Position numbers and translations under genes: made by a program
Notes under the pieces: model-generated
What the model saw: the letters and a program-made list of their open reading frames with translations, nothing else
Database searches by the model: none
What the model was told of the DNA's origin: nothing
NCBI GenBank assembly: GCA_026394495.1
Contig: JAPKYE010000028.1
Coordinates: 6,691-70,690, forward strand
Length of the DNA stretch: 64,000 nucleotides
Source of the DNA: Methanobacteriota archaeon
GTDB lineage: Archaea; Thermoplasmatota; E2; DHVEG-1
Direction: 5' to 3'
Part shown: piece by piece, positions 6 through 24,008 of the stretch
Numbering within the stretch: position 1 is the first letter of the stretch
Layout: each line of letters opens with the position of its first letter

Positions 6-1208
6 ATGAACATTATCTCGAACAACACTCTTTATGGCTTGTATCTCACTCAATGTACCAATAATACTATCTTTTATAACAACTTCATCAACAACACCCA
101 GAATGCCTATGATACAGGAAGCAACACATGGTACAATATCACGTTTCATGAGGGGAATTACTGGTCTAATTTTGATGAACCCTCAGAAGGTGCCTATGAC
201 AACGACAGCGACGGCATTATTGATACACCGTATACTATTGCTGGCGGGAACTACAAGGATTATTATCCATTGATCCGTCCATGGCCACAAATACCTGGTG
301 ATCTCGACCATGATGATGATATTGACCAAGATGATTTTGCAATATTCCAACAAGCGCTCGGTCACAGCTTTGACGATCCCTTGTATAACCCTGAAGCAGA
401 CTACAATAACAACGGGGTTGTAGACCTTGTTGATTATCAGATTTGGCTTTTATATTATCGTGACTTCGTTGCATCTCATACCGATATACTGATCAATGGA
501 ATCACTGCAAATTATATCACCGGTGACTCAACAAATTTTTCTGCAGAACACGACACCGCAACAAAAATAAAACTCACAGCGACCATCAAAAACAATGGAA
601 CCATTAATATCACGACACCATTCCAAGTCTCATTCTACGGTATCAACGAACAAGATGATGCACATGCTCGCCTTGTTAGGATTGGCACGGTAGAGATCAC
701 CCATCTATTAATCGGGAGAACCGCTGAGGCAACACTTTTATGGAGACCCCAACCAGAGATTCAAACCGTTCTTGCTATTGCTGACAGCAGCAGGATTATC
801 AAAGAAAACAATGAAAATAACAACGAAATGAGTATCAAACTACCAAGTTATCCCTTATGGAAATGCCTCACTGAAACCCAAGAGATATACAAGAAACTCA
901 ACGAACAATATAAAGTCCCAAGCTCAGAAAAGATCATCGCACTTACCGACGAAGCTGTCTCTTTAGAGGTATATGTCAACCCGCAAGAGTATTTGGAGGT
1001 TATGAAGGGGATTGCAGGACTTGAGTTTCAGGTTAGTGACGAACTGAAGGGACAGGTACATGATGATCTTCTCGAAAAATACCAGGAAATGGTAAAGCAA
1101 CTTCTTGATCGCATCGTAAGCAGCTCAGAGACATCATGGGATGACGCAGCAGCTGTCGCAGAACTCCAGGTTCAAATTTGTAAACATGTGAAACAGATGA
1201 TGACGTAA
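6..1208 (+). CDS. 5'-truncated secreted protein: parallel beta-helix (NosD-like) repeats + dockerin-like Asp-rich segment (DYNNNGVVDLVD) + C-terminal domain. ORF is open to the window start.
   Basis: Asn-rich repeats NNTIxxNxF typical of right-handed beta-helix; D-x-N-x-D-G-x-x-D calcium-loop-like dockerin motif; no stop upstream of the first Met. Confidence 0.55.
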   Translation: MNIISNNTLYGLYLTQCTNNTIFYNNFINNTQNAYDTGSNTWYNITFHEGNYWSNFDEPSEGAYDNDSDGIIDTPYTIAGGNYKDYYPLIRPWPQIPGDLDHDDDIDQDDFAIFQQALGHSFDDPLYNPEADYNNNGVVDLVDYQIWLLYYRDFVASHTDILINGITANYITGDSTNFSAEHDTATKIKLTATIKNNGTINITTPFQVSFYGINEQDDAHARLVRIGTVEITHLLIGRTAEATLLWRPQPEIQTVLAIADSSRIIKENNENNNEMSIKLPSYPLWKCLTETQEIYKKLNEQYKVPSSEKIIALTDEAVSLEVYVNPQEYLEVMKGIAGLEFQVSDELKGQVHDDLLEKYQEMVKQLLDRIVSSSETSWDDAAAVAELQVQICKHVKQMMT

Positions 1209-1928
1209 AAAAAACGCGTGTCTTCCATCTCCGTAGATGATACTTGATGCACATTACAGACATCCCCCATCATTCAACAAAAAAATATACATTGGAAAAA
1301 AAATTGTTTAGGCGGTACTCAAACAAAAAAAGAAACGGAAAAAATAGGGAAAGTAGGATACAAGAAAAAAATGAAAAACAATAACAGAATTTGACTATTT
1401 ACAGCTCCTTGGTAGCCACTTTCGGAAACATGGCGTTATTATGAGGTTGGATTTTTGAAGTAATTTTAGGCCATTTTAACATAAATTCTATAGTCTATAA
1501 TAAGGAGTAGAACTCATTTTATTTTGACATATCTGCATACCAATCACTAGTGAAAATTGTAGTGTAACATTTTACACCAGTTTTTTGCACTAGAACACAG
1601 GTCCATTTTTCAATCACTCGAAATGTAAGAGTACCTCATATAGAACATACAAAAAGATCTGGTGAAACAAGATGGAAATTCATAAGAAAAAATTCAACCC
1701 TTAAATGACGCCATATTTTCGGAAAACTGAGTCGGCAACAAGATTTATATACCATATCTGACATCCGCTATTTCTCTGTCCATACCAGACATGATCGGGC
1801 AATTCCTCTGAGAAACCCGGTATCAAACAACCACAAAAAGAATTTTTGGTTGTTTGTGAAATGTCACGGCTGAGACACAATAAGGAACGAAAATTCGTTC
1901 AAAAAAACAACCGACTAGAGGGTATGTT
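1209..1928 (+). promoter_or_regulatory. AT-rich leader/promoter region upstream of the ribosomal protein operon
   Basis: 720-bp non-coding AT-rich stretch immediately upstream of rpl3; TATA-like tracts present. Confidence 0.3.
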
Positions 1929-2921
1929 ATGCCGGATATACATCGTCCACAACCAGGTTCACATGGCTATTCGCCAAGGAAAAGAGCAGGACCACGAGCA
2001 CCGCGTATACGCAGTTGGTCAGAAGGCGGGGATAAACCAAAAATCCAAGGTTTCCTTGGATATAAAGCAGGGATGACCCATGCATTAATTGTTGACTATC
2101 GACCAACGTCAACGACGTCGGGGCGAGAAGTTCGAATGCCTGTTACTATAATTGAGGCGCCGCCAGTTAAAATTGCGGCAGTCCGTATTTACAAACGAAA
2201 CTGCTATGGTTTACAAACTGCTGGCGAAATCTGGGCGGAAAAACTTGATCCCGAACTTGCCAAACGAGTTACACTAATAAAGAAAAAACCAGAATATAAC
2301 TGGGATATCGCAAAAGATGCAGAAGAGCTTCGTGCGGTTGTGTACACTCAACCAAAACTCATCAGCAGCGTCCCAAAGAAAATCCCTGATGTGCGGGAGA
2401 TGAGAATCAGCGGAGGAAGCTTAGATGAGCAGATTGCATATGCAAAAACGATCCTTGGAAAAGAGATCACCATTGCGGATACAGTGAAAGAAGGAGATAT
2501 GCTTGACGTTGTTGCTATCACAAAAGGAAAAGGATTTCAAGGAGTTGTAAAAAGATTTGGTGTTAAACTATTATTTCATAAAAACTCAAAACACAGACGT
2601 ATGATTGGTACAGCAGGATCCTGGCATCCAAACTGGGTGCAATCAACTGTTCCCCAAGCAGGACAAGTCGGATACCATCAGAGAACCGAGTACAACAAAC
2701 GAGTACTGAAAATAGGGGAGAAAGGCGAAGAGGTCACACCAGCAGGAGGCTTTCCCAACTACGGTGTGGTACATAACTCTTACATTGTGTTCCATGGATC
2801 AATCCCGGGTCCAGCGAAACGACTGATTAGTATGAGAGACGCTGTACGGTACAAACGTGGTGTCGATGTGAAGAAACCAGAAATCACATATATATCTACT
2901 ATGAGCAAACAAGGTGTGTAA
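1929..2921 (+). CDS. rpl3: 50S ribosomal protein uL3
   Basis: N-terminus MPDIHRPQPGSHGYSPRKRA plus conserved L3 core; first gene of the operon. Confidence 0.92.
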   Translation: MPDIHRPQPGSHGYSPRKRAGPRAPRIRSWSEGGDKPKIQGFLGYKAGMTHALIVDYRPTSTTSGREVRMPVTIIEAPPVKIAAVRIYKRNCYGLQTAGEIWAEKLDPELAKRVTLIKKKPEYNWDIAKDAEELRAVVYTQPKLISSVPKKIPDVREMRISGGSLDEQIAYAKTILGKEITIADTVKEGDMLDVVAITKGKGFQGVVKRFGVKLLFHKNSKHRRMIGTAGSWHPNWVQSTVPQAGQVGYHQRTEYNKRVLKIGEKGEEVTPAGGFPNYGVVHNSYIVFHGSIPGPAKRLISMRDAVRYKRGVDVKKPEITYISTMSKQGV

Positions 2922-2923
2922 CC

Positions 2924-3685
2924 ATGACGAAAGTAAATGTGTATGGGCTAGATGGCTCAGTGAAAGAAAAAATCGATTTACCGCATGTGTTTCATACACC
3001 ATATCGACCAGATATCATCAGTAAAAACGTCAATGCAATTCATTCCAACAAACGACAACCCTACGGCTGTGATCCATTTGCAGGGACCAAACATTCAGTC
3101 GCCTCAGTAGGAAAAGGCAGAGGGATGTCTCGAGTCCCAAGACTTGCCCAAGGCCGTGTTGCAGCACTTGCACCATGTGTCGTTGGTGGCAGACGGGCAC
3201 ATCCACCAAAAGTTGAGCGGAACTGGCACGAAAAAATAAACAAAAAAGAAAAGAAACTCGCAAGAAACTCAGCTCTTGCCGCTACAGCAGATAAAGAGCT
3301 TGTTTCGAAACGTGGACATAAATTCGATGAAAACGTAACCCTTCCCATTATTGTTGATGATTCATTTGAGAATCTGAAAAAAACAAAGGACGTCATCGAT
3401 GTGCTCCAGAAAATCGGTATCTACGATGATGTTGTACGAGCGACGAATGGGAAACACATTCGCGCAGGACGCGGGAAGTCACGAGGGCGAAAATACCGTA
3501 TCCCTAGATCCATTTTGATTATTTCAGCAAAAAACGATATCGTAAAAAGCTCGGAGAATCTAACCGGCGTCGAATTAACCGACCCAAAAAACCTGAACGT
3601 TGAAAACCTTGCACCAGGTGGTATCGCTGGGCGGTTAACCATAATGACTCAATCTGCGCTAAAACAACTAGGGGGTGCAAAATAA
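2924..3685 (+). CDS. rpl4: 50S ribosomal protein uL4
   Basis: L4 family sequence; position after L3. Confidence 0.9.
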   Translation: MTKVNVYGLDGSVKEKIDLPHVFHTPYRPDIISKNVNAIHSNKRQPYGCDPFAGTKHSVASVGKGRGMSRVPRLAQGRVAALAPCVVGGRRAHPPKVERNWHEKINKKEKKLARNSALAATADKELVSKRGHKFDENVTLPIIVDDSFENLKKTKDVIDVLQKIGIYDDVVRATNGKHIRAGRGKSRGRKYRIPRSILIISAKNDIVKSSENLTGVELTDPKNLNVENLAPGGIAGRLTIMTQSALKQLGGAK

Positions 3686-3942
3686 TGGATCCATATGCTA
3701 TTATCATTCACCCGTTTGTCACTGAAAAAACAATGAACCAGATGGAGAAAAACAATACTCTTGAGTTCGTTGTACGACGCACCTCAAACAAAAAACAAAT
3801 AAAAAATGCTATTGAAAAAATGTTCGATGTCAAAATAAAAGACGTACGTACGAAGATTGCGAAAGATGGAAAACACGCGCTCGTCACCTTTATGCCTGAG
3901 TTTAAGGCAGAAGATGTCGGTATGCGGATAGGTATATTCTAA
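3685..3942 (+). CDS. rpl23: 50S ribosomal protein uL23
   Basis: MDPYAIIIHPFVTEKTM motif; ATGA overlap with rpl4. Confidence 0.9.
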   Translation: MDPYAIIIHPFVTEKTMNQMEKNNTLEFVVRRTSNKKQIKNAIEKMFDVKIKDVRTKIAKDGKHALVTFMPEFKAEDVGMRIGIF

Positions 3943-3952
3943 GGTGGAATCT

Positions 3953-4657
3953 ATGGGAAAGCGTTTAATCCAACAAAGACGAGGACGGTTTCAAGGACGA
4001 TTCAACGTTCCGTCTCATAAATTTAGAGGAAATGTTACATATATTAACGACCGAGAGACAAAAGGAATCGTGGAAGAACTCATTCATGATCCTGGCCGAT
4101 CGACTCCACTTGCACGAGTGAAACTCGAAAACAACAAAAAAATATTGATGCTTGCAGGCGAAGGAATGCTTGTCGGCCAAGAAATAAAATTTACGCAGAA
4201 CAAAGAAATAAACGCAGGAAACGTACTCTCAATTGGTCTTGTACCTGAAGGATACCCGATATATAATATAGAACTTGTCCCAGGCGATGGCGGTAAATTT
4301 GTTCGTGCTGCAGGAAGCAACGCATACATCGTATCCCATGAAAACAAGAAAACAACGATACGTCTTCCCTCTGGTCAGTTTAAAACAATTGATTCCTTAT
4401 GCCGTGCAACAATTGGGTTGCCTGGTGGCGGAGGACGAAAAGATAAACCATTTATGAAAGCAGGAAAGAAATACTTCCAATATCGCAGAAAAGGAAAACA
4501 ATACCCTGTGGTCCGAGGAGTCGCAATGAACCCTGTGGATCACCCCCATGGTGGAGGAAGTCATCAACATGTCGGGAAACCAAGTACGGTTTCTCGTGGT
4601 GCACCGCCTGGACGAAAAGTAGGTAACATTGCCGCGAAACGAACGGGACGGAGGTAA
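3953..4657 (+). CDS. rpl2: 50S ribosomal protein uL2
   Basis: MGKRLIQQRRGRF...HPHGGG; AAGGTGG RBS places the start at ATG 3953 rather than GTG 3944. Confidence 0.9.
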   Translation: MGKRLIQQRRGRFQGRFNVPSHKFRGNVTYINDRETKGIVEELIHDPGRSTPLARVKLENNKKILMLAGEGMLVGQEIKFTQNKEINAGNVLSIGLVPEGYPIYNIELVPGDGGKFVRAAGSNAYIVSHENKKTTIRLPSGQFKTIDSLCRATIGLPGGGGRKDKPFMKAGKKYFQYRRKGKQYPVVRGVAMNPVDHPHGGGSHQHVGKPSTVSRGAPPGRKVGNIAAKRTGRR

Positions 4658-4662
4658 AGTGC

Positions 4663-5115
4663 ATGGCTGAAGATTTCAGAGAATCCATAAAAAGCAGACG
4701 GAAACGTGAACGGAAAAAGATAGAAATCAGGAAAAAAGAGTTCCATTACCATGGCTACACATTAGAGAACCTGCAGAGCATGTCTATCGACGAACTCATA
4801 CCAATTCTGCCATCACGAGCACGACGCACATTAACGAGAGGATTAACGCAAATACAGATGAAATTCATGGAAGATATGAAAACAGCGCAGAAAGGAGACA
4901 TCATTCGAACCCATCTGCGAGATATGCTTATTCTCCCAAGTTTCGTTGGTCATAAAATTGATATTTACAACGGAAAAGAATTCCAACGGGCTGAAATTCA
5001 ACCTCAGATGATAGGACATTACCTCGGAGAATTTTCACTCACCAGAAAACGAGTAAAACACACTGGTCCTGGTGTCGGTGCAACCCGAGGATCGAAATTT
5101 ATGCCATTGAAGTGA
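4663..5115 (+). CDS. rps19: 30S ribosomal protein uS19
   Basis: Conserved S19 C-terminal core (GHKIDIYNGKEF...). Confidence 0.9.
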   Translation: MAEDFRESIKSRRKRERKKIEIRKKEFHYHGYTLENLQSMSIDELIPILPSRARRTLTRGLTQIQMKFMEDMKTAQKGDIIRTHLRDMLILPSFVGHKIDIYNGKEFQRAEIQPQMIGHYLGEFSLTRKRVKHTGPGVGATRGSKFMPLK

Positions 5116-5122
5116 TGAGACT

Positions 5123-5569
5123 ATGCGGAAATATTCAACTGAGAAAGACTCTGAAAAAAGCGCAAAAGCCTATGGGTATGAGCTGCATTGCTCACCAAAA
5201 GATTCCGTGAACCTTGCCTATGCGTTACGAGGCCTGAAGCTTGAACATGCAAAAAAATATCTTGAGGAGGTCATCGCATTGAAACGGGCGCTCCCTGCCG
5301 TATACCATAAAAAGAAGGTTCATCATCAGACAGGAATGGGCCCAGGGAGTTTTCCGAGGAAAGCAGCCGCGTATATGTTAAAAATCCTAAAAAACGCGGA
5401 GAACAACGCAGAATACAAAGGATACGATACAGAAAACATGACGATCACCCATATCTGTGCATATCGCGGCCGGGAAATCCACGCGATGATGCCACGTGCA
5501 CATGGCCGATCAACAGATAGCAACGAACAAACCACAAATGTTGAAATCATCCTTGAAGAGGCGGAATAA
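5123..5569 (+). CDS. rpl22: 50S ribosomal protein uL22
   Basis: L22 family; operon position. Confidence 0.88.
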   Translation: MRKYSTEKDSEKSAKAYGYELHCSPKDSVNLAYALRGLKLEHAKKYLEEVIALKRALPAVYHKKKVHHQTGMGPGSFPRKAAAYMLKILKNAENNAEYKGYDTENMTITHICAYRGREIHAMMPRAHGRSTDSNEQTTNVEIILEEAE

Positions 5570-6457
5570 ATGGCAAATGAACGCAAGTTTATCAGAGAGA
5601 ATTCAAAACGATCGCTCATCAAAAAATACCTTGTCAGTCAGATAGAAGGTGCTGGTTTTGGCGGGATGAGTATTCAAAGAACACCCATTGGCACCCGTAT
5701 CAACCTTCTCGTTGAACGACCAGGAATGGTTATCGGAAAAAGCGGAATAAAAATTAAGGAGCTAACAGAGAACATTAAAACTCGGTTTAACGTCGACAAC
5801 CCGCAGATAGAAATCCAAGAGGCAGGCTCAAGTGCATCATTGAATGCTCAGATCATGTCAGAGAAACTTGCGGAGGCACTCGAACGAGGATGGCATTTCA
5901 GACGAGCAGGACATTCCACAGTACGACGAATCATGCAATCAGGGGCAAAAGGATGTCAAGTTATCATCTCAGGGAAATTAACCGGCGAACGTCATCGAAC
6001 AGAAAAATTTACAGAAGGCCATGTGAAATACTGCGGTGAAACCGCGTTACAAGTCATGGATATTGGGTTCTCAGCAGCGAAACTAAAACCAGGAATCCTG
6101 GGTGTGAAAATCCGGATTATGAGACCTGATGCGAAACTTCCTGATGAGGTTATAATAAAAAAACCAGGGGAACAAGCAACAGTAACTGCTGAAACAAAAC
6201 CTGTGGAGAAAAAAGAACCTGAAAAACCAATCGAAGCAGCTATAGGTGAAGAAAAAATCACACCCATCAAAAAAATCATAGAAATCCCAGGTGTTGGACC
6301 ATCGCTTTTAAAGAAACTGGAGAAAGCAGGGATCAAATCCGTCGAAGAACTATTCGAGATGGATATGGATGATATCCTCGCAATCGAAGGCATCGGCAAG
6401 AAAACCGCAGAAAACTTGATTAAAAACGTAAAAAAAGCACTGGAAGAAGGCGAGTAA
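5570..6457 (+). CDS. rps3: 30S ribosomal protein uS3 with C-terminal Lys/Glu-rich linker and helix-hairpin-helix module
   Basis: KH-domain S3 core; C-terminus IPGVGPSLLKKLEKAGIKSVEEL...IEGIGKKTAENL is a tandem HhH pair. Confidence 0.9.
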   Translation: MANERKFIRENSKRSLIKKYLVSQIEGAGFGGMSIQRTPIGTRINLLVERPGMVIGKSGIKIKELTENIKTRFNVDNPQIEIQEAGSSASLNAQIMSEKLAEALERGWHFRRAGHSTVRRIMQSGAKGCQVIISGKLTGERHRTEKFTEGHVKYCGETALQVMDIGFSAAKLKPGILGVKIRIMRPDAKLPDEVIIKKPGEQATVTAETKPVEKKEPEKPIEAAIGEEKITPIKKIIEIPGVGPSLLKKLEKAGIKSVEELFEMDMDDILAIEGIGKKTAENLIKNVKKALEEGE

Positions 6458-6664
6458 ATGGTTCTGAAAGTAAAAGAAATCAGAGACTTTAATACTGAGG
6501 AACGAAAAACAAAACTCAGAGAATTGAAAGAAGAACTTATGCATGAGCGAGGAGTCGCAGCAATGGGTGGATCACCGCCATCACCAGGGAAGATCAGGCA
6601 GATCCGCATGGCCATAGCAAAGATCCTTACCATCATGCGGGAGAAAGGAGAACCAAATGAGTGA
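6458..6664 (+). CDS. rpl29: 50S ribosomal protein uL29
   Basis: L29 family; ATGA overlap with rps3. Confidence 0.88.
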
Positions 6665-10570: not shown

Positions 10571-11113
10571 ATGACAAAAATGACTGAGATTAAAGAAAAC
10601 GTGAAAATCCCGGGTGGCGTTGAGATTTCCATTGACAATAAAACCGTTTTGGTGAAAGGACCAAAAGGAACACTTACGCGAACATTTGATCACCCACGAA
10701 TTAATATAACAAAAAAAGAAAACATCGTTGAAGTACTCTGCACAGAGTCACCTCATAAACGAGAAAAAGCATTAGTGGGAACAGCTGCTGCGCACATCAA
10801 CAACATGATGAAAGGGGTAAGTGAAGGGTTTGAATACAAGATGAAAACCGTGTTCGCTCATTTCCCGATTAAAACAAGTGTCGAAGGAAACACATTTATT
10901 GTTCAGAATTTTCTCGGAGAACGATCCCCGCGTAAGACAACGATCCTTGATGGAGTAAAAGTCGCAATCCAAGCTGAGATCGTCACCGTATCTGGTATCG
11001 ATAAAGAAAACGTTGGGCAAACCGCAGCGAACATCGAGCGAGCAACCAAAGTAAAAAAACGAGATGTCCGGGTGTTCCAAGACGGTATTTACATCATTAG
11101 CAGAAGAGGGTAA
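10571..11113 (+). CDS. rpl6: 50S ribosomal protein uL6
   Basis: L6 family two-domain protein. Confidence 0.88.
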   Translation: MTKMTEIKENVKIPGGVEISIDNKTVLVKGPKGTLTRTFDHPRINITKKENIVEVLCTESPHKREKALVGTAAAHINNMMKGVSEGFEYKMKTVFAHFPIKTSVEGNTFIVQNFLGERSPRKTTILDGVKVAIQAEIVTVSGIDKENVGQTAANIERATKVKKRDVRVFQDGIYIISRRG

Positions 11114-11118
11114 AACAT

Positions 11119-11868
11119 ATGACAAAAAAAGATGATACGATCAAGGAATTCACCGCGTTAAAAGGAGTGGGAAAAAACAAAGCCGAGCTCCTCTACAATC
11201 ATGGGTTTAATTCATTGCAAAAACTAAAAAAAACATCAGTTGACGATCTTGTAAAGGTGAAAGGAATCACCAAGAAAAACGCCCAGGACATACTTTCACA
11301 ACTCCAAGAAAAAAAACCTGATACGAAAAAGACACAAAAGAAAACAGAAACCAAAAAAGAATCAACAAAACCCAACTTAAAAAAAGATGAAAAAGACACC
11401 GTGACAGAAACACAAACAAAACCAGAGGAAACCGTTGAAATCGTAGAACCAGAAGGTAAATACCACGTAAAAAAGAAACCAGAGCTAACGGACAAACAAA
11501 AACAACAGCTGATCCAGCGTAAACATATAAAAAGCAGAACACCCCGGTTTCTGCGTGATCAATGGTTCCGGTATAAACGCATACCGATGACCTGGCGCAG
11601 ACCTCGAGGAATAACCTCAAAATTTCGGATGAACAAAGGATACCGACCCAGTCTGGTCCGGATCGGATTCCGCGGTCCAAAAGACGTACGCGGGTTGCAT
11701 TCATCAGGGTTTGAAGAAGTCCTCGTTCATAACGTCTTAGATTTACAGAAACTAAACCCAAAAACACAAGCGGCCCGTGTCGGCGGCACAGTCGGGACAC
11801 GCAAACGCATAGATATCGCAAAGAAAGCAGCAGAACTTGACATTCGCATATTAAACATGAAGGTGTAA
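11119..11868 (+). CDS. rpl32e: 50S ribosomal protein eL32 with N-terminal HhH + Lys-rich extension
   Basis: C-terminal half matches L32e (RFLRDQWFRYKRI...); N-terminus ALKGVGKNKAELLYNHGFNSLQKL...VKGITKKNAQDIL is an HhH pair. Confidence 0.85.
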   Translation: MTKKDDTIKEFTALKGVGKNKAELLYNHGFNSLQKLKKTSVDDLVKVKGITKKNAQDILSQLQEKKPDTKKTQKKTETKKESTKPNLKKDEKDTVTETQTKPEETVEIVEPEGKYHVKKKPELTDKQKQQLIQRKHIKSRTPRFLRDQWFRYKRIPMTWRRPRGITSKFRMNKGYRPSLVRIGFRGPKDVRGLHSSGFEEVLVHNVLDLQKLNPKTQAARVGGTVGTRKRIDIAKKAAELDIRILNMKV

Positions 11869-11871
11869 TAT

Positions 11872-12333
11872 ATGACTGATTTACGAAATCAACGCCGGAT
11901 GGCTGCATCAATTCTGAAATGCGGTAGGAACCGGGTATGGATGGATCCAGACAGAATGGAAGAGATAGCGAAAGCGGTCGTCCGAAAAGACATCCGCGTG
12001 CTCATCAACGGAGGAGCAGTAAAAAGCCTCCGGATACAAGGTATTTCCAGTGGACGAAGAAAATTAAACATCATACAGAAAGAAAAAGGCAGACAACGAG
12101 GCTTTGGCTCACGAAAAGGAAAGAAACATGCACGTCTGCCAAAAAAAGACCGCTGGATGCAAACAATCCGGGCGTTACGGACGTATCTAGCCCAACTTCG
12201 AGAAGAAAAAAAACTGGATCCGACGAGTTACCGAACATACTATATGAAATCAAAAGGCGGCGAATACCGCAGTGTGAACCATTTGAAATCCCATCTGATC
12301 TCAGATGGCGTCATTAAGGAGGAGAAACAATGA
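11872..12333 (+). CDS. rpl19e: 50S ribosomal protein eL19
   Basis: MTDLRNQRRMAASILKCGRNRVWMDP... Confidence 0.9.
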   Translation: MTDLRNQRRMAASILKCGRNRVWMDPDRMEEIAKAVVRKDIRVLINGGAVKSLRIQGISSGRRKLNIIQKEKGRQRGFGSRKGKKHARLPKKDRWMQTIRALRTYLAQLREEKKLDPTSYRTYYMKSKGGEYRSVNHLKSHLISDGVIKEEKQ

Positions 12334-18001: not shown

Positions 18002-18772
18002 ATGAAAACACTCGGGGTTTACACCAAGGATTTTTCACTGTACCATGATCTGTTAAAAGTGTTAAAAAGACGAAAAATTGCGTATGTTTCATTGTTTTCA
18101 CCACAAGATATTCCCCAGCGCATAGGCATCATTCTCACCGCACATGCTGAGTTCCACGACATAAAACATAAAGAAGCGGTGGCTGCAGATGCATACGACT
18201 CACTGGATCATGCCGTAGATGTCGCCCTTCGCCTTCTACATGGCAAAGAGATGTACGCAAAGGTTTTTATTGGAATTGACCCCGGTGAATCACCAGGTGT
18301 TGCAATTGTCGGAGATGATGTTCTTTTGCATAAAACCCAGGTTGAATCACCAGAAAAAATTGTTTCCTTGGTCAAACAATACCTGCGAGAATACCCCTCG
18401 ATAGAAACCATGATTCGAATTGGACATGGTGCAATTATTATCAGAAACCGGATCATCAACTCCCTTATTCCGCTTCATATTCCAATCGAGATCGTCGACG
18501 AAACAAAAACAACACCATCCAAACAAATAAGCCGATGTGAAAAAGACAGCGAGGCAGCAGCAGCAATCGCATTACGCTCTGGGGGAAAGGTTCAGATGAA
18601 ACTCCCGCTTAAACCTACAAGAGGTGCGATAAAAGACATCCAACGACACAGCAGACAGTTCACCGATGGAACATTTACAATATCTGAGAAAACCGCTGAG
18701 GATGTGCTTAAAGGTGTTCTGAGTTTGAAAGAAGCAGTGGAAAAAGAAAAAAAACCTTCGAAACGTTTATGA
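18002..18772 (+). CDS. RNase H-fold nuclease, RuvC/YqgF-like (COG2433-like), with an extra N-terminal domain
   Basis: FIGIDPGESPGVAIV (D-x-G motif) and downstream IVDETKTT (DExxTT) resemble YqgF/RuvC catalytic motifs. Confidence 0.5.
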   Translation: MKTLGVYTKDFSLYHDLLKVLKRRKIAYVSLFSPQDIPQRIGIILTAHAEFHDIKHKEAVAADAYDSLDHAVDVALRLLHGKEMYAKVFIGIDPGESPGVAIVGDDVLLHKTQVESPEKIVSLVKQYLREYPSIETMIRIGHGAIIIRNRIINSLIPLHIPIEIVDETKTTPSKQISRCEKDSEAAAAIALRSGGKVQMKLPLKPTRGAIKDIQRHSRQFTDGTFTISEKTAEDVLKGVLSLKEAVEKEKKPSKRL

Positions 18773-18803: not shown

Positions 18804-20354
18804 ATGGAATTGAAACGTGCGCTAATCAGTGTTTCTGATAAGACAGGTCTTGTTGAATTAGCAACCGTGTTTTCTAAAGCAGGTATTGAGATTATCTCCA
18901 CAGGTGGCACTGCATCGGTGTTACAGAAAGCTGGGATTTCTTTTATAGATATTTCTGATGTCACTGGTTTTCCTGAGATGCTTGATGGCCGGGTGAAAAC
19001 CCTTCATCCAGTTGTTCATGCAGGGATTCTTGCAGAGCGAAAGAAAAAAGAACATATGGCTACGTTACAAAAACACAAGATACAACCTGTTGATATCGTG
19101 GTATGTAACCTGTATCCTTTTGAGCAGACGATTAAAAAACCAGATGTGAAAATCGAAGAAGTCATTGAAAATATTGATATCGGCGGGCCGACGTTGATAC
19201 GGGCAGCAGCAAAAAACTATCAGGATGTCATTGTGGTCACAAATCCACAACAGTACCCGGAGATCATCAAAGGTATCACATCAAAAAAAGGATTTACTGA
19301 GGAACAACACAGAAGATTAGCTCTTGAAGCATACACACATACAGCGCAATACGACAGCATTATTTCCCAGTATCTTCACAGTAAGTGGACCACAGAGGTA
19401 TTACCTGAGAACCCGTCGTTTACCATGCGTAAGATAGAGGAAATGCGCTACGGGGAGAATCCGCATCAGAAAGGTGCATTTTATCAAAAACTTCCCGAGG
19501 TTACAGAACCATGTATTACTACTTCAAAACAACTTCAAGGAAAGGAACTATCGTTTAACAACATCCTTGATGGGAACTGCGCGATTGAATGCATAAAAGA
19601 GTTTTCTGAGCCGTCCTGCGTCATCATCAAACATGCAACGCCCTGCGGGGTTGCAAGTGCAAAAACATTGCTGCAGGCATGGAAAGATGCCTATGCCACA
19701 GACGTCTTTTCTCCTTATGGCGGTATTGTCGCGTTTAACCAAGAAGTAGATCGCGGCGTTGCTGAAGAGCTGTCCCCCTATTTTCTTGAAGTGATTATCG
19801 CCCCTCATTTTAGTAAAGATGCTTTTTCTGTGTTCGGAAAAAAGAAAAACCTCAGACTGCTTGAATGCACAAGTCTAGGAACAGATATTGAACGCAAAGG
19901 ACTTGATATCCGCAGCGTCGTCGGAGGATTTCTCATCCAAGAACGAGACATATGGTTTTCACCAAAGGAAAACTGGAAGGTTGTCACTACAAAGAAACCG
20001 TCTATTGAGGATCTTGCATCGATGGAGTTTGCAGTACGCTGTGTAAAACACGTGAAATCAAACTCAGTGCTGTTTGTGAAAGGAACACAGACTGTTGCTA
20101 TCGGCGGCGGACAAACCTCCCGGGTGGATGCCACATGGATTGCAACCCATAAAGGAAAAGATAACATAAAAGGATCAATCATGGCAAGCGATGCGTTTTT
20201 CCCATTTCGAGATGGAGTCGATGTCGCTGCACAAGCCGGAGTAAAAGCAATCATTCAACCCGGTGGAAGCATCCGCGATGAAGAAGTAATCCAGGCGGCA
20301 AACGAACATGGGATTTCGATGGTGTTTTCCGGGCAGCGATACTTTAGACATTGA
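18804..20354 (+). CDS. purH: Bifunctional AICAR transformylase / IMP cyclohydrolase
   Basis: MELKRALISVSDKTGL (MGS-like domain) followed by the AICARFT domain; 516 aa. Confidence 0.9.
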   Translation: MELKRALISVSDKTGLVELATVFSKAGIEIISTGGTASVLQKAGISFIDISDVTGFPEMLDGRVKTLHPVVHAGILAERKKKEHMATLQKHKIQPVDIVVCNLYPFEQTIKKPDVKIEEVIENIDIGGPTLIRAAAKNYQDVIVVTNPQQYPEIIKGITSKKGFTEEQHRRLALEAYTHTAQYDSIISQYLHSKWTTEVLPENPSFTMRKIEEMRYGENPHQKGAFYQKLPEVTEPCITTSKQLQGKELSFNNILDGNCAIECIKEFSEPSCVIIKHATPCGVASAKTLLQAWKDAYATDVFSPYGGIVAFNQEVDRGVAEELSPYFLEVIIAPHFSKDAFSVFGKKKNLRLLECTSLGTDIERKGLDIRSVVGGFLIQERDIWFSPKENWKVVTTKKPSIEDLASMEFAVRCVKHVKSNSVLFVKGTQTVAIGGGQTSRVDATWIATHKGKDNIKGSIMASDAFFPFRDGVDVAAQAGVKAIIQPGGSIRDEEVIQAANEHGISMVFSGQRYFRH

Positions 20355-20840
20355 TATACCTCTAATTTTTGATAGCGTGCTTTCACCGGTTTGTTTTTTG
20401 TAAATTTATTTTACACATAAAAAGAATCGCTTTGGTGTGTTGATTGGTTGTTTACAGGTGATGTATAATTATTATCTTAGGCTTGAGAACTCATTTTTTC
20501 CTCTATGAAACTATAGAATTAATCAGCAATAATATTTTATTTTGAAAGATAGAGGAACTTTGCTTTTTTTTGCTTTATAAGTATTTCTCTAAAAATTGCG
20601 ACATATTTATATAATAGCAGTGATAAATATATACACGTGCATGACATTGCCACGCATTGAAGGTGGCATGGTTGTCAAGACGAAAATAAAATATATATGG
20701 AAAAGGGGGAAAAAAAGAAAAAAATCAAAAATTTTGTTTGGGAAAAGGCTGTAGTTTTCTTAATGGAGAAAATGACGACCAGGACGTAACCGTTAGAAGT
20801 CCTTATCCTGGAAGGCAAAAAAATATTAAAAAAAAACTGT

Positions 20841-21695
20841 ATGAAAAAGGAGAAAAAGAAAAACATGAAAAATACTAAAATTTTTGGGATAGGAATAGCA
20901 GCGTTTATGATTTTAGCTGTATTTACAGTAATGATGGCCACGCCTGTACTGGCTGACGGTGATCCTTATGATGGCGCAAATGGAACCGCAGACCATCCTG
21001 ATGGACATCCTGGTCTACCTGGAGATGCAAGTCATCCAAATGGTGGTAACGGCGGGCATGCGTACCCAGGTAGTACCGGTAATGGTGGAAAAGGTGGCGA
21101 TGGAGCCTACCAAAATCCTGGTGATGGTGGCAAAGGAGGAAATGGTGGACAAAGTGCTGGTAATGGGAATGGCGGGGATGGCGGCAAAGGCGGAGGCAGC
21201 GGATCTGGTAAAGGTGGCGATGGTGGAGACGCGGGAAACTCTGGTCCCGGCAGTGGTAATGGTGGCAAGGGTGGAGAAGCAGGAGGCAGCAGTACTGGTG
21301 AGGGTGGCGAGGGTGGACACGGTGGAAACGCTGGTGGAACTGGTAATGCTGGCGAAGGTGGAGACGGCGGAGACAGCGGTACTGATAATGGCGGAGATGC
21401 AGGAGATGGGGGAAACAGTGTTGGTGGTGGTGGTGGAGACGGCGGAGACGGCGGTGATAGCGGTGGTGGTTTAACTAAACATGCCGGTGATGGCGGTGAT
21501 GGTGGAAATGGAAATCCTCCTGGAGAAGGGGGACATCATGGGACATGTGGAGGTGGGTGGCAAGGCTGGGATGGAGATGACGGCGATGTCCCACCAATAC
21601 CAGGGGAGAAAGGGAAATTTGAAAAGGTCATAAAAGGGATTGAAACAGGTGTGGAAGTAGGGAAAGTAATAGCACCCCTAATAAAAGTAAAGTAA
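20841..21695 (+). CDS. Secreted Gly/Asp/Asn-rich tandem-repeat protein (GNGGKGGDG-type repeats) with signal peptide and basic amphipathic C-terminal tail
   Basis: N-terminal KNTKIFGIGIAAFMILAVFTVMMATPVLA signal; ~200 aa of degenerate GGxGGxG repeats; coding strand G-rich, giving spurious ORFs in other frames. Confidence 0.6.
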   Translation: MKKEKKKNMKNTKIFGIGIAAFMILAVFTVMMATPVLADGDPYDGANGTADHPDGHPGLPGDASHPNGGNGGHAYPGSTGNGGKGGDGAYQNPGDGGKGGNGGQSAGNGNGGDGGKGGGSGSGKGGDGGDAGNSGPGSGNGGKGGEAGGSSTGEGGEGGHGGNAGGTGNAGEGGDGGDSGTDNGGDAGDGGNSVGGGGGDGGDGGDSGGGLTKHAGDGGDGGNGNPPGEGGHHGTCGGGWQGWDGDDGDVPPIPGEKGKFEKVIKGIETGVEVGKVIAPLIKVK

Positions 21696-21760
21696 CTCCC
21701 TTTTTTCCTTTTTTTTCTTTCTCTTTTTTTTCTTTCAGCCTAAGACCTGCTTTTTTTGAC
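21696..21760 (+). terminator. Pyrimidine/T-rich tract downstream of the Gly-rich gene (candidate archaeal oligo-T terminator)
   Basis: ctcccttttttccttttttttctttctcttttttttcttt immediately after the stop codon. Confidence 0.35.
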
Positions 21761-21791
21761 AAAAACCAGACATTCTTTGTCGGAAACCCGA

Positions 21792-22050
21792 TAATTCCCA
21801 TAGGCATGACCTACAACCCCTTTCGTTGACCTGTTTTCAGAAGCTCTAATTACTCAGTAAAAACCAGGAGAAAAACACTTCCTATCTGTGTGACATTTTC
21901 ATTTCCCATCGGCGTCACCCAAAAACACCCTCGTTGACCCAGCCTCCTCCGGGAGAAATTTCCCATCCGCATGACCTGAAGTTTTTCCCATCGGCGTGAC
22001 ATTGCATTTCCCATCTCTGTAACATTTCATTTCCAGTCATTGTGACAACG
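21792..22050 (+). repeat. Array of 7 same-orientation repeats, consensus (A)TTTCCCATCGGCGTGACATT; two ~40-bp long copies and a final block of 4 contiguous 22-25-bp tandem units
   Basis: Copies start at ~21795, 21879, 21904, 21961, 21986, 22008, 22031; copies 1 and 3 extend to ...ACC-N7-ACCC-TTCGTTGACC. Confidence 0.7.
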
Positions 22051-22163
22051 TGCTCCCAATTTTTATCACATAATGTCTTCTGTCAGTCATTTTACTCATT
22101 CATTGCTACAATCCTTTAAAAAATGCTAACCTTCTTTAAAGAGGAGAGCATATCTTTTATCCA

Positions 22164-24008
22164 ATGCAATTTACTGTAAAAAAACGCGATGGCCCTGCAC
22201 GAATCGGCGAGCTTACTATTGACCAATCCATAGTTACTACCCCTACGATTCTCTATGTTCACACCACACGATGTACTGCACCAGATTTTGCGGATATGCT
22301 TTTAACAAATAATATAGCGAAAACACAGAAACCTGCTTTGAAAGTTCTTGGGAGTATTTTTTCAAAAGAGAATGTTACGGCAAATGAACTGACTCTATCT
22401 GATTATTTGTTGTATCCAAAAGATGTCCCAACGCAATTACATAAAGATGCATTCAAACATATAGATAAAAAGAACGCAGGATGTGTCATTGTTCCCGCGG
22501 ATCCATTGCTAATCCCTGATATAACACAAGACTCCACTGCAACCATATTTATTGTTGCGAATGCTGCTCAACTCTTCTCTCAGCAGTCCGCATTCATTAG
22601 TTTCATTATTCAATTACGAGAGCACATCGGCTATCAGAAAACAATCTATCTTCCTTGCCTTGGTGATCCGACGAATCTTGCGGTTTTTACCTATATGGGT
22701 ATTGATCTCTTTGACTCGATGGCAGCGGTTCTTGCTGCACGAAACAATATTTTCTTATTTTCGACGGGTCCCTATCAAAAAAACGATCTGAGTGAACTTC
22801 CCTGCAGCTGCCCTGCTTGTACTAATGCAGGAAATGATCCATCGAAAATGGGTTACCCTGAGATCCTTCAGCACAACAACCATGGTCTTTACAACGAGTT
22901 GAAACAAATCAGAAATGCGATCACTCAAGGACAACTCAGAGAACTTGTGGAAATCAGGGTGCGAGCACATCCTGAACTCACCGCAGTTCTTCGACATCTT
23001 GATTCTGATCATTACCCTTTTCTTGAAGAAAGAACTTCTCTAATACGAAAACATCCGTTGATTGCGACAACAAAGGAAGCACTCACCCGTCCGGAGGTAC
23101 GACGATTTCAAGAACGAGTAATTCATCGTTACAAAAAACCAAAAAACGCAAAAATTTTACTTTTGCTACCTTGCTCATCAAAGAAACCGTATTCGTTTTC
23201 AAAATCACATAACCTCTTCCAACAACGGCTTTTTGGTGCGAAAAACCCGTCTGTCGTCCATGAACTCATCATCACCTCCCCTCTTGGCGTTGTCCCAAGA
23301 GAACTCGAACTTATCCCTCCTGCTTCATCCTATGATATCTCTGTCACTGGCCACTGGGATGAAGATGAAAAACACATGATTCGCACACTTCTTCAGACAT
23401 ACCTCAAAAAAAACAAGTACGAAACAGTGATCATACATCTCCCGTTAGGTCTTGCAGAGTTTGTCACTGATCTTTTTGTGGACCCAATCATCACCTGTAC
23501 CGATAAACCAACATCAGAGGAATCCTTACACAACCTTTCTCTAGCCTTAGAAAAAACCACAGTATCCTACGACAACATCCCTGTTTCAATACGTGTAAAA
23601 GAAAACATGAAAGCAATAGCCAACTTTCAATTCGACGAAAAAGCTGCAGACATCCTTTTCAACGAAAGCGAAGTACGAGGAAAATACCCGTACTGGAAAC
23701 TTCTCTCAAATAAAAAACAAATAGGGATGATCACCCAGGAACGCGGATTTCTATCACTCACACTTGATGGGGCAGAACGATTGAAACAATCAGGAACATA
23801 TTGGGTAGACATCGCTGATGATTTCATCTTGAAAGGATCGTTGTTTGCCCCAGGCGTCAAAGATGCAGACTCACTGATTCGAATTGGCGATGAAGTTGTC
23901 GTAACGAGGAATAAATTAGTCTGTGGCGTTGGTGTCGCCCAGATGAACGGTACAGAAATGAAAGAATCTACAAAAGGGGAAGCAGTGAAACTGAGACATA
24001 TCGCGTAA
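22164..24008 (+). CDS. arcS: Archaeosine synthase ArcS (TGT-like domain + Zn-binding CxCxxC + PUA), alpha subunit of the ArcS/RaSEA system
   Basis: N-terminal KKRDGPARIGEL TGT-like fold; CSCPAC zinc motif; ArcS signature PC-x3-KPY-x2-S-x2-H present as LLPCSSKKPYSFSKSH; C-terminal PUA-like domain. Confidence 0.75.
   Translation: MQFTVKKRDGPARIGELTIDQSIVTTPTILYVHTTRCTAPDFADMLLTNNIAKTQKPALKVLGSIFSKENVTANELTLSDYLLYPKDVPTQLHKDAFKHIDKKNAGCVIVPADPLLIPDITQDSTATIFIVANAAQLFSQQSAFISFIIQLREHIGYQKTIYLPCLGDPTNLAVFTYMGIDLFDSMAAVLAARNNIFLFSTGPYQKNDLSELPCSCPACTNAGNDPSKMGYPEILQHNNHGLYNELKQIRNAITQGQLRELVEIRVRAHPELTAVLRHLDSDHYPFLEERTSLIRKHPLIATTKEALTRPEVRRFQERVIHRYKKPKNAKILLLLPCSSKKPYSFSKSHNLFQQRLFGAKNPSVVHELIITSPLGVVPRELELIPPASSYDISVTGHWDEDEKHMIRTLLQTYLKKNKYETVIIHLPLGLAEFVTDLFVDPIITCTDKPTSEESLHNLSLALEKTTVSYDNIPVSIRVKENMKAIANFQFDEKAADILFNESEVRGKYPYWKLLSNKKQIGMITQERGFLSLTLDGAERLKQSGTYWVDIADDFILKGSLFAPGVKDADSLIRIGDEVVVTRNKLVCGVGVAQMNGTEMKESTKGEAVKLRHIA

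Follow-up and report, generated by a model that had tools for sequence, protein, structure and literature searches.

An inserted glycine-rich gene between purH and arcS

The window analysed here is a stretch of 64,000 nucleotides (nt) from a Methanobacteriota archaeon (assembly GCA_026394495.1, contig JAPKYE010000028.1), and the subject of this report is a gene, located between purH and arcS, that encodes a highly glycine-rich protein. The features of the locus are collected in Table 1. The longest open reading frame (ORF) specifies 284 residues, of which 105 are Gly, 25 Asp, 20 Lys and 18 Asn. A first-pass annotation had described an exported, highly repetitive Gly/Asp/Asn-rich protein at this position. 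Re-translation of 20841-21695 (+), which includes the stop codon, gave a product identical to the one then reported, with the quoted signal peptide, the repeats and the strings CGGGWQGWDGDDGD and KGKFEKVIKGIETGVEVGKVIAPLIKVK all present, and the description is borne out by the signal-peptide-like N-terminus, the number of Gly residues and the significant periodicity set out below. Two long shadow ORFs that had been noted at 20959-21474 (+) and 21015-21320 (-) were both confirmed.

An exact-sequence look-up did not find the 284-residue form; a 276-residue form, beginning at the second ATG, is on record. It comes from Logan SRR20698646 contig L001, an independent assembly of the same locus that is 99.7% identical to the window over 5186 nt and on which the gene caller chose the ATG at 20865. 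Because this gene call coincides with a GGAG at 20849-20852, 12 nt 5' of that ATG, and with an A/T box further upstream that resembles an archaeal TATA element, the true start is likely to be the ATG at 20865. Residue numbers in this report follow the 276-residue form.

Table 1. Coordinates in the window of the gene, the parts of its product and the segment that contains it
Feature	Coordinates	Strand	Remarks
Lineage-specific segment	20355..22163	.	1809 bp, from the purH stop to the arcS start
A/T box AAAAAAATATTAAAAAAAAA	20817..20834	+	Candidate TATA element of archaeal type, 30-48 nt 5' of ATG 20865; read from the sequence
Longest ORF	20841..21695	+	284 residues; coordinates include the stop codon
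Probable coding sequence	20865..21695	+	276 residues from the second ATG; gene call of that length on contig L001
Signal peptide, residues 1-30	20865..20954	+	MKNTK / IFGIGIAAFMILAVFTVMMA / TPVLA, then DG
Conserved Pro/His/Asp motif, residues 32-65, GDPYDGANGTADHPDGHPGLPGDASHPNGGNGGH	20958..21059	+	Common to the relatives
GGX-triplet repeat core, residues 59-229	21039..21551	+	At least ten in-phase segments of 7-13 residues, loops of 3-8 residues
Trp-rich acidic segment and Pro linker, residues 228-247, CGGGWQGWDGDDGDVPPIPG	21546..21605	+	Contains the sole Cys
Basic C-terminal tail, residues 248-276, EKGKFEKVIKGIETGVEVGKVIAPLIKVK	21606..21692	+	GxxxGxxxG pattern
T-rich tract	21697..21736	+	Directly 3' of the stop codon; by its sequence, resembles an archaeal oligo-T terminator
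Seven copies of the ~23-nt motif cATTTCCCATCnGCGTGACat	21794..22052	+	3' of the gene within the inserted segment, 110-370 nt 5' of arcS

The annotated frame was identified as the coding frame by codon usage, by repeat spacing and by conservation at the protein level. A synonymous-codon score, trained on 59 ORFs of the window, was -0.061 for this frame as against -0.236 and -0.176 for the other two. The G+C content (GC) of codon positions 1, 2 and 3 of the coding sequence is 0.71, 0.59 and 0.29, so that the third position lies at or beyond the AT bias of the genome (the mean for genes of the window is 0.38). The internal DNA repeats are spaced start-to-start by 42, 45, 54, 81, 87 and 90 nt, every one a multiple of three, and the non-repetitive ends of the gene, which encode the signal peptide and the tail, bracket these repeats in one shared frame. 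Moreover, an N-terminal motif of 30-40 residues is kept as protein in contigs ranging from 41 to 74% GC, with synonymous differences at wobble positions. It had been proposed that coding potential in another frame, or lack of frame conservation at homologous loci, would speak against the gene; the conservation of the motif as protein, with synonymous nucleotide differences, provides the answer. As judged from its coding signature, the ORF is very probably a real gene.

The flanking genes were recognised by their Pfam architecture as PurH (AICARFT_IMPCHas, 1.5e-114, together with MGS) and ArcS (TGT, DUF5591, TGT_C2 and PUA). In four related metagenome-assembled genomes (L002, L004, L007 and L008) only ~40 bp separate the end of the PurH match (5955-5963) from the beginning of ArcS (6001). 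On this comparison of gene order the 1.8-kb segment of the window is thus a lineage-specific insertion. The ArcS homologs, the best of which is 55% identical, assign the organism to the Thermoplasmatota, and none of 27 ArcS loci carries a Gly-rich ORF. From its upstream end onwards, the inserted segment consists of an AT-rich stretch of 510 bp, the gene, the T-rich terminator-like tract and 468 bp of downstream DNA. The first-pass annotation had placed the gene in an AT-rich island, which holds for the upstream flank (GC 0.29-0.31) and not for the gene itself, whose GC of 0.53-0.60 is the highest nearby, nor for the downstream flank, which at 0.40-0.43 is close to the window average of 0.41. 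The codon usage of the gene is mildly atypical (z = -2.15, the second lowest of 60), and this, together with the break in synteny, fits the foreign or recent origin that had been raised for it. Gene and flanks came in together, as one insertion of 1.8 kb.

Layout of the protein and its relatives

The N-terminus of the protein displays a basic n-region, a 20-residue hydrophobic core, V at -3 and A at -1, and AlphaFold2 (AF2) predicts a helix across it (residues 4-25/29). These features, together with a signal peptide or lipobox at the corresponding position in relatives, indicate that the protein is likely to be exported by the Sec pathway. The mature form has ~245 residues, a mass of 21.6 kDa and an isoelectric point (pI) of 4.4. 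The conserved motif that follows the signal peptide is itself built of G-x-P triplets (GHPGLPGDA).

Ten GGX segments that are strictly in phase lie within residues 59-216, starting at residues 59, 72, 86, 101, 115, 131, 145, 163, 186 and 208, with start-to-start distances of 13, 14, 15, 14, 16, 14 and 18 residues. The loops between them include AYQNP, SAGN, SGS and AGGSST, and at the DNA level the repeat families D1-D3 and D5 recur with a period of 42/87-90 nt. The protein holds 15 GG.GG strings. The autocorrelation of Gly is 0.25 at lag 3, a value matched by 2 of 5000 shuffled sequences, and 0.22 at lag 14, matched by 102 of 5000. The third positions of the in-phase triplets are occupied by D (12), N (8), K (5), E (4), H (2), Q (1) and V (1), and the pI of the repeat core is 4.1. 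In the 29-residue tail, by comparison, the pI is 9.6, with seven Lys against four Glu and a net charge of +3. The tail has no hydrophobic stretch of transmembrane length because Lys and Glu interrupt it, and no archaeal C-terminal sorting signal of the PGF-CTERM type (archaeosortase targets) was found, either as an NCBIfam match at E ≤ 10 or as a PGF string.

Searches of Pfam (E ≤ 1), NCBIfam and PHROGs with the protein gave no match, and phmmer against PDB sequences gave none at E ≤ 10. An exhaustive phmmer scan of 1.84 billion cluster-representative proteins returned seven hits, four of which share a common layout (P0002, 2.6e-8; P0001, 5e-8; P0005, 1.9e-5; P0007, 5.5e-4); the other three (P0003, P0004 and P0006) were judged to be compositional matches to collagen-like or acidic repeats and were rejected as family members. 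A word-indexed search of 5.8 billion proteins with the whole protein as query was overloaded with Gly-rich candidates and yielded a single hit, and the same search with the motif alignments A1 and A2 gave only short fragments (P0008-P0012). A locus search of metagenome and viral contigs based on A1 yielded no locus confirmed by tblastn, probably because of low-complexity masking. With a degenerate DNA pattern for HPDGYDGxPGD, four metagenome loci were recovered (L033-L036), and no viral relatives were found by any search, including the same pattern applied to viral contigs. The relatives number ~10 in total, come from contigs of 43-74% GC and are all unnamed metagenomic singletons.

The layout common to these proteins is a signal peptide or lipobox, then (YPxDYPFG)xxGxxxHPDG[YH]xGxPGDxxxPNGGxGG....GxGG[KR]GGD, then GGX repeats and a variable C-terminus. 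The N-terminal motif is common to P0001, P0002, P0005, P0007-P0012 and the ORFs of L033-L036 (alignments A1-A3); columns G40, G47, G50 and P52 are invariant and H44 and P45 are nearly so. The window protein displays this layout, and the first half of its motif is degenerate, with DPYDG in place of YPxDYPFG. A lipobox is seen in P0007 (LVGC) and L035 (SIGC). L033 and L035 resemble P0007, L036 has a GC of 74%, and L034 (GC 43%) encodes a 304-residue protein that matches the window protein in overall design, more closely than any other homolog. By these searches, the family is very rare and unannotated, and it occurs in both archaeal and bacterial metagenomes.

The C-termini differ from one member to the next: P0001 carries a PT-HINT domain (4.8e-14), P0007 and L035 a domain of ~200 residues, P0002 and L036 helical tails, and the window protein its short basic tail. 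In P0001 (L032, 555-1529) the Hint/PT-HINT domain stands straight after the GGX repeats with a Hedgehog-like T|CF junction (…GSGNPTCFAAGTSV…), and the protein terminates ~10 residues past it. This arrangement suggests, from the sequence, an autoprocessing event that releases or ligates the Gly-rich domain, rather than a toxin.

Other observations concern the surroundings of the relatives. On L030, P0002 (6001-6501) lies amid small unannotated ORFs, ~5 kb from a tyrosine integrase (11229-12317) and an HTH_17, excisionase-like ORF (11017-11232), with CheB/CheR and Crp-type genes among its contig neighbours, and it may be part of a mobile island. On L034, the homolog (5743-6657) follows 138 bp downstream of a 1714-residue ORF (460-5604), the secreted product of which appears by eye to contain a subtilisin-type protease region, parallel beta-helix/PKD-like repeat modules and a dockerin-like C-terminal end; the two genes may form a cell-surface cluster. 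On L035, an in-frame TAA at ~2706-2709 (minus strand) separates the lipoprotein signal peptide (…LLLGSIGC…TTLAA) from PADYPFG…HPDGYDG. It falls at the conserved Tyr of P0007, and an identical stop is present in L033, a contig from another sample. As read from these two contigs, this stop is either a nonsense mutation in a pseudogene or a read-through site.

A candidate polyglycine-II bundle and the readings that compete with it

An AF2 model built without a multiple sequence alignment (MSA) had a mean predicted local distance difference test score (pLDDT) of 43.6; it contained only the signal-peptide helix and a tail helix (residues 250-273, pLDDT about 63), and its core was uninformative. A second model, built on an alignment of ten family sequences, had a mean pLDDT of 55.9, with values of 52-66 in the core and below 50 in the tail. 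The core of this MSA model contains neither helices nor strands, and lone DSSP bridges at residues 156, 171, 185 and 199 mark out a register of 14-15 residues. When the model was compared with the PDB using Foldseek, the sole hits were the springtail antifreeze proteins (AFPs) 7JJV (E 7e-4, TMt 0.55) and 2PNE/3BOG. In sfAFP, the polyproline-II (PPII) helices occupy residues 2-11, 15-24, 29-39, 44-54, 59-68 and 72-81 (PMC13243192), a 13-15-residue period as in the window protein. Two Gly in every three residues mark the two-layer type of PPII bundle (bioRxiv 10.1101/2023.11.25.568672; PMC10235112). The packing of such Gly-rich helices relies on hydrogen bonds of the backbone, and flanking modules of many kinds are compatible with the fold (bioRxiv 10.1101/2023.11.25.568672). 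The PGRS domains of mycobacteria have been modelled as polyglycine-II (PGII) sandwiches with three to four triplets per helix, acidic faces and a C-terminal cargo (PMC9436101). On the strength of the periodicities and the models, a two-layer PGII bundle is the fold towards which we incline, if only by a modest degree.

The likeness to PE_PGRS proteins and glycine-type ice-binding repeats that had been remarked upon in the first-pass annotation is apt at the level of repeat type, given the GGX triplets, the 14-residue period and PDB hits confined to springtail proteins. With mycobacterial PGRS domains the window protein shares GGX triplets with N, D or A at the third position, three to four triplets per segment and many segments (PMC9436101, PMC13243192), as well as acidic lateral faces, variable C-terminal modules and an extracytoplasmic location. 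However, the third positions of PGRS repeats are A and N, whereas those of the window protein are D, N, K and E, and the Phe/Trp-rich 'straight edge' loops of PGRS domains, proposed to embed in the mycomembrane, have no counterpart here. PE_PGRS proteins are distinguished by a PE domain, a GRPLI linker and export by ESX-5, in place of which the window protein, whose host is archaeal, has a Sec signal peptide and a different N-terminal motif, and there is no detectable sequence homology between the two. Membership of PE_PGRS itself is not upheld: the PE domain (PF00934) was not found at a Pfam E ≤ 1, the GRPLI string is absent and the N-terminus carries the Sec-type signal peptide.

The springtail AFPs (HhAFP/sfAFP, 2PNE and 3BOG; GrAFP, 7JJV) share with the window protein G-X1-X2 triplets in which X1 is mostly Gly, segments of ~10 residues every 13-16 residues, secretion and a comparable number of helices (6-13). 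They differ in having an Ala-rich flat ice-binding face and disulfide bonds, whereas the window protein is strongly acidic and has an extra N-terminal motif and a basic tail. Any relationship to them would be one of convergence. The same principle of Gly-rich PPII packing is found in the phage S16 gp38 adhesin (6F45), Obg (1LNZ), acetophenone carboxylase (5L9W) and ALK (7N00), whose PPII domains are embedded in larger folded proteins, some with three-layer or honeycomb packing and poly-Gly runs; none of these four was among the Foldseek matches of the AF2 model to the PDB. RTX nonapeptide beta-roll proteins are likewise Gly/Asp-rich, acidic and extracellular, and the window protein has some GGxGxD strings in common with them; it lacks, however, their hydrophobic position 8 and nonapeptide period, having periods of 3 and 14 residues instead.

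The reading we prefer, with moderate confidence, is that of an exported, acidic, two-layer PGII bundle protein of an undescribed family. Following Sec export, with probable cleavage after VLA, the N-terminal motif (GHPGLPGDA...) and 10-12 GGX segments would form left-handed polyglycine/polyproline-II helices of three to four triplets each. Short loops would join these helices, and residues about 40-230 would be arranged as a flat antiparallel bundle of two layers, an arrangement known from solved structures of the springtail AFPs and predicted for the PGRS domains of mycobacteria. In each triplet, the two Gly would be packed towards the inside and the sides and the remaining residue (D, N, K, E or H) would face the outside, producing charged, net-negative faces. 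Because members of the family have signal peptide, N-terminal motif and GGX repeats in common but differ at the C-terminus, the bundle may be regarded as a rigid extracytoplasmic scaffold bearing a variable C-terminal module, in this case a 29-residue cationic helix with the GxxxGxxxG pattern. That this helix might retain the protein at the anionic cell membrane or envelope is a guess, and an anchoring role for the tail, which had been suggested earlier, seems doubtful at best.

A number of points weigh against the bundle. The confidence of AF2 is low, both from the single sequence and from the shallow MSA. The root-mean-square deviation of the Foldseek hits is high, at 7-13 A, and since Foldseek scores amino-acid identity besides 3Di, the matches to antifreeze proteins may partly reflect Gly composition. 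The lag-3 periodicity is weaker than that of sfAFP (0.69), GrAFP (0.44) and the L034 homolog (0.51). There is one Cys only, and sfAFP-type stabilising disulfide bonds are therefore absent. The tail, described in the first-pass annotation as basic and amphipathic, is indeed basic, but its hydrophobic moment (muH 0.50) was equalled in 165 of 2000 shuffles and its amphipathicity is thus marginal. With composition correction, BLASTP of the window protein against the L034 homolog gave no significant match (E 32); as BLASTP is blind to this similarity, the case for a family depends on the motif of 30-40 residues and on E-values from HMMER that range from 2.6e-8 to 5.5e-4. The gene is, moreover, known here from sequence alone.

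The same low pLDDT, which is below 50 over most of the core in the single-sequence model, would also suit an exported but intrinsically disordered Gly-rich polyanion that serves as a flexible matrix, a spacer, a hydrogel-like coat or a cation sponge on or around the cell. The low-complexity composition and a triplet periodicity below that of solved PPII bundles are consistent with such a chain, and plant GGX proteins show only transient PPII structure in molecular dynamics simulations (PMC13243192). Disorder does not, however, call for the confinement of non-Gly residues to one triplet phase, and the regular 13-16-residue spacing of in-phase segments with non-Gly loops between them, the conserved N-terminal motif and Foldseek hits made up exclusively of PPII bundles all speak for order, such that we consider disorder possible but unlikely. 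The combination of a conserved N-terminal part with variable C-termini, and the pretoxin domain directly after the repeats of P0001, recall instead a polymorphic-toxin or bacteriocin-like delivery scaffold, the effector here being a cationic, glycine-zipper-like, membrane-active peptide. The GxxxGxxxG pattern and charge of the tail would be compatible with this, as would a patchy, mobile-looking distribution (the insertion in the window, and the integrase and excisionase near P0002). Yet the 1.8-kb segment contains no candidate immunity gene or toxin domain, P0001 ends right past its Hint domain without a toxin, the hydrophobic moment of the tail is not significant, and no match was found in plasmid, phage or PHROG libraries, PADLOC not having been searched; a delivery role is improbable.

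An ice-binding function of the springtail type would account for the repeat type, the helix-turn period and the fact that 7JJV, 2PNE and 3BOG are the only fold matches in the PDB. These antifreeze proteins are, however, defined by a flat Ala/Ser/Thr/Val ice-binding face (PMC10235112). That face is absent from the window protein, where the outward positions carry the charged and polar residues enumerated above with no Ala/Thr face, and neither disulfide bonds nor detectable sequence homology to antifreeze proteins was found; the function implied by the earlier comparison is not sustained, and we hold it to be very improbable. Tandem repeats of 9, 42 and 87 nt and the long shadow ORFs could also be expected of a G-rich, low-complexity satellite that is open in one frame by chance, and six GGxGxD strings, with weak blastn matches to a plasmid gene annotated 'calcium-binding protein', of an RTX-like calcium beta-roll. 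The satellite is contradicted by the non-repetitive signal peptide and tail in the same frame, by codon usage strongly in favour of that frame and by a protein motif conserved across very different GC contents. As to RTX, the likeness drawn in the first-pass annotation fails: HemolysinCabind (PF00353) was not hit at E ≤ 1, a complete GGxGxDxUx unit is lacking (the pattern GG.G.D.[LIVMFYW]. was unmatched), the Sec signal is N-terminal whereas RTX proteins have a C-terminal signal for type I secretion, and AF2 shows no beta strands. Taken together, a satellite or a beta-roll is highly unlikely. A collagen-like triple helix was also considered and rejected, there being no PF01391 hit and a shift of triplet phase every 13-16 residues. 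Most Pro residues are found in the N-terminal motif and past the C-terminal end of the repeats, and a few loops contain isolated ones, unlike the Pro-rich, uninterrupted G-X-Y repeats of collagen.

The architectural class of PPII bundles is known, while the family described here is absent from Pfam, NCBIfam and PHROGs. Its free-standing two-layer form has been described as restricted to springtails (PMC10235112), PGRS domains are experimentally unsolved, and no archaeal or Sec-exported PPII bundle is mentioned in the PPII-bundle literature cited here. If the two-layer PGII fold is correct, a ~22-kDa, disulfide-free protein with a Sec signal would widen the known distribution of this architecture, might offer an easier PGRS-like model than the hard-to-express mycobacterial proteins, and would provide an extra scaffold for PPII protein design. 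If the protein is merely disordered, it is an ordinary low-complexity orphan. A more tentative, and in our estimate rather less probable, extension is that the protein is the first archaeal member of a cross-domain group of free-standing two-layer PGII bundles, exported by Sec or as lipoproteins, with an N-terminal cap motif and interchangeable C-terminal modules (Hint autoprocessing, unassigned domains or a membrane-binding helix). It would then be a non-mycobacterial, ESX-independent analogue of the PE_PGRS 'sail', and the 'Collembola-only' PPII architecture would have arisen independently in prokaryotes and be spreading horizontally.

Surroundings of the inserted segment

In this uncultured member of the Thermoplasmatota, the locus illustrates cleanly how one orphan gene, bringing its own regulatory flanks, has been inserted between a closely linked pair of housekeeping genes. 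The wider neighbours are also housekeeping genes, encoding ribosomal protein S2, a class I Glu/Gln-type tRNA synthetase, a polyprenyl synthetase, an amino-acid-kinase-family protein and the glycine-cleavage T protein. A 256-residue ORF directly upstream of purH (18002-18772, +) has no Pfam match at E ≤ 1e-5.

The borders of the segment were inspected for flanking direct repeats, a tRNA or an integrase, and only low-complexity A/T repeats were found; there is no clean target duplication, and the only tRNA lies 15 kb away. Comparisons with phage and plasmid sequences by tblastn and blastn gave nothing, or merely short GGN-repeat matches, and an Rfam scan of 20300-22200 gave nothing meaningful. 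Four of the seven copies of cATTTCCCATCnGCGTGACat downstream of the gene are nearly tandem. Four pattern matches were counted against 0.19 expected, the motif occurs nowhere else in the window, and it is absent from the loci of the relatives. These copies could be protein-binding sites, or iteron-like repeats that came with the gene.

All the differences between the window and L001, 12 mismatches and two indels, are confined to window positions 19757-19838 within purH, at the contig end of L001 (its positions 1-85), and this cluster is probably an artefact of the assembly end or a strain junction. Finally, the purine-rich 5' end of the gene (20837-20872, AAAAAGGAGAAAAAGAAAAAC...) and the pyrimidine-rich stretch that follows the stop codon (21703-21738) show 78% complementarity over 36 nt; this may be a chance result of low complexity, or the ends of the mRNA may pair.

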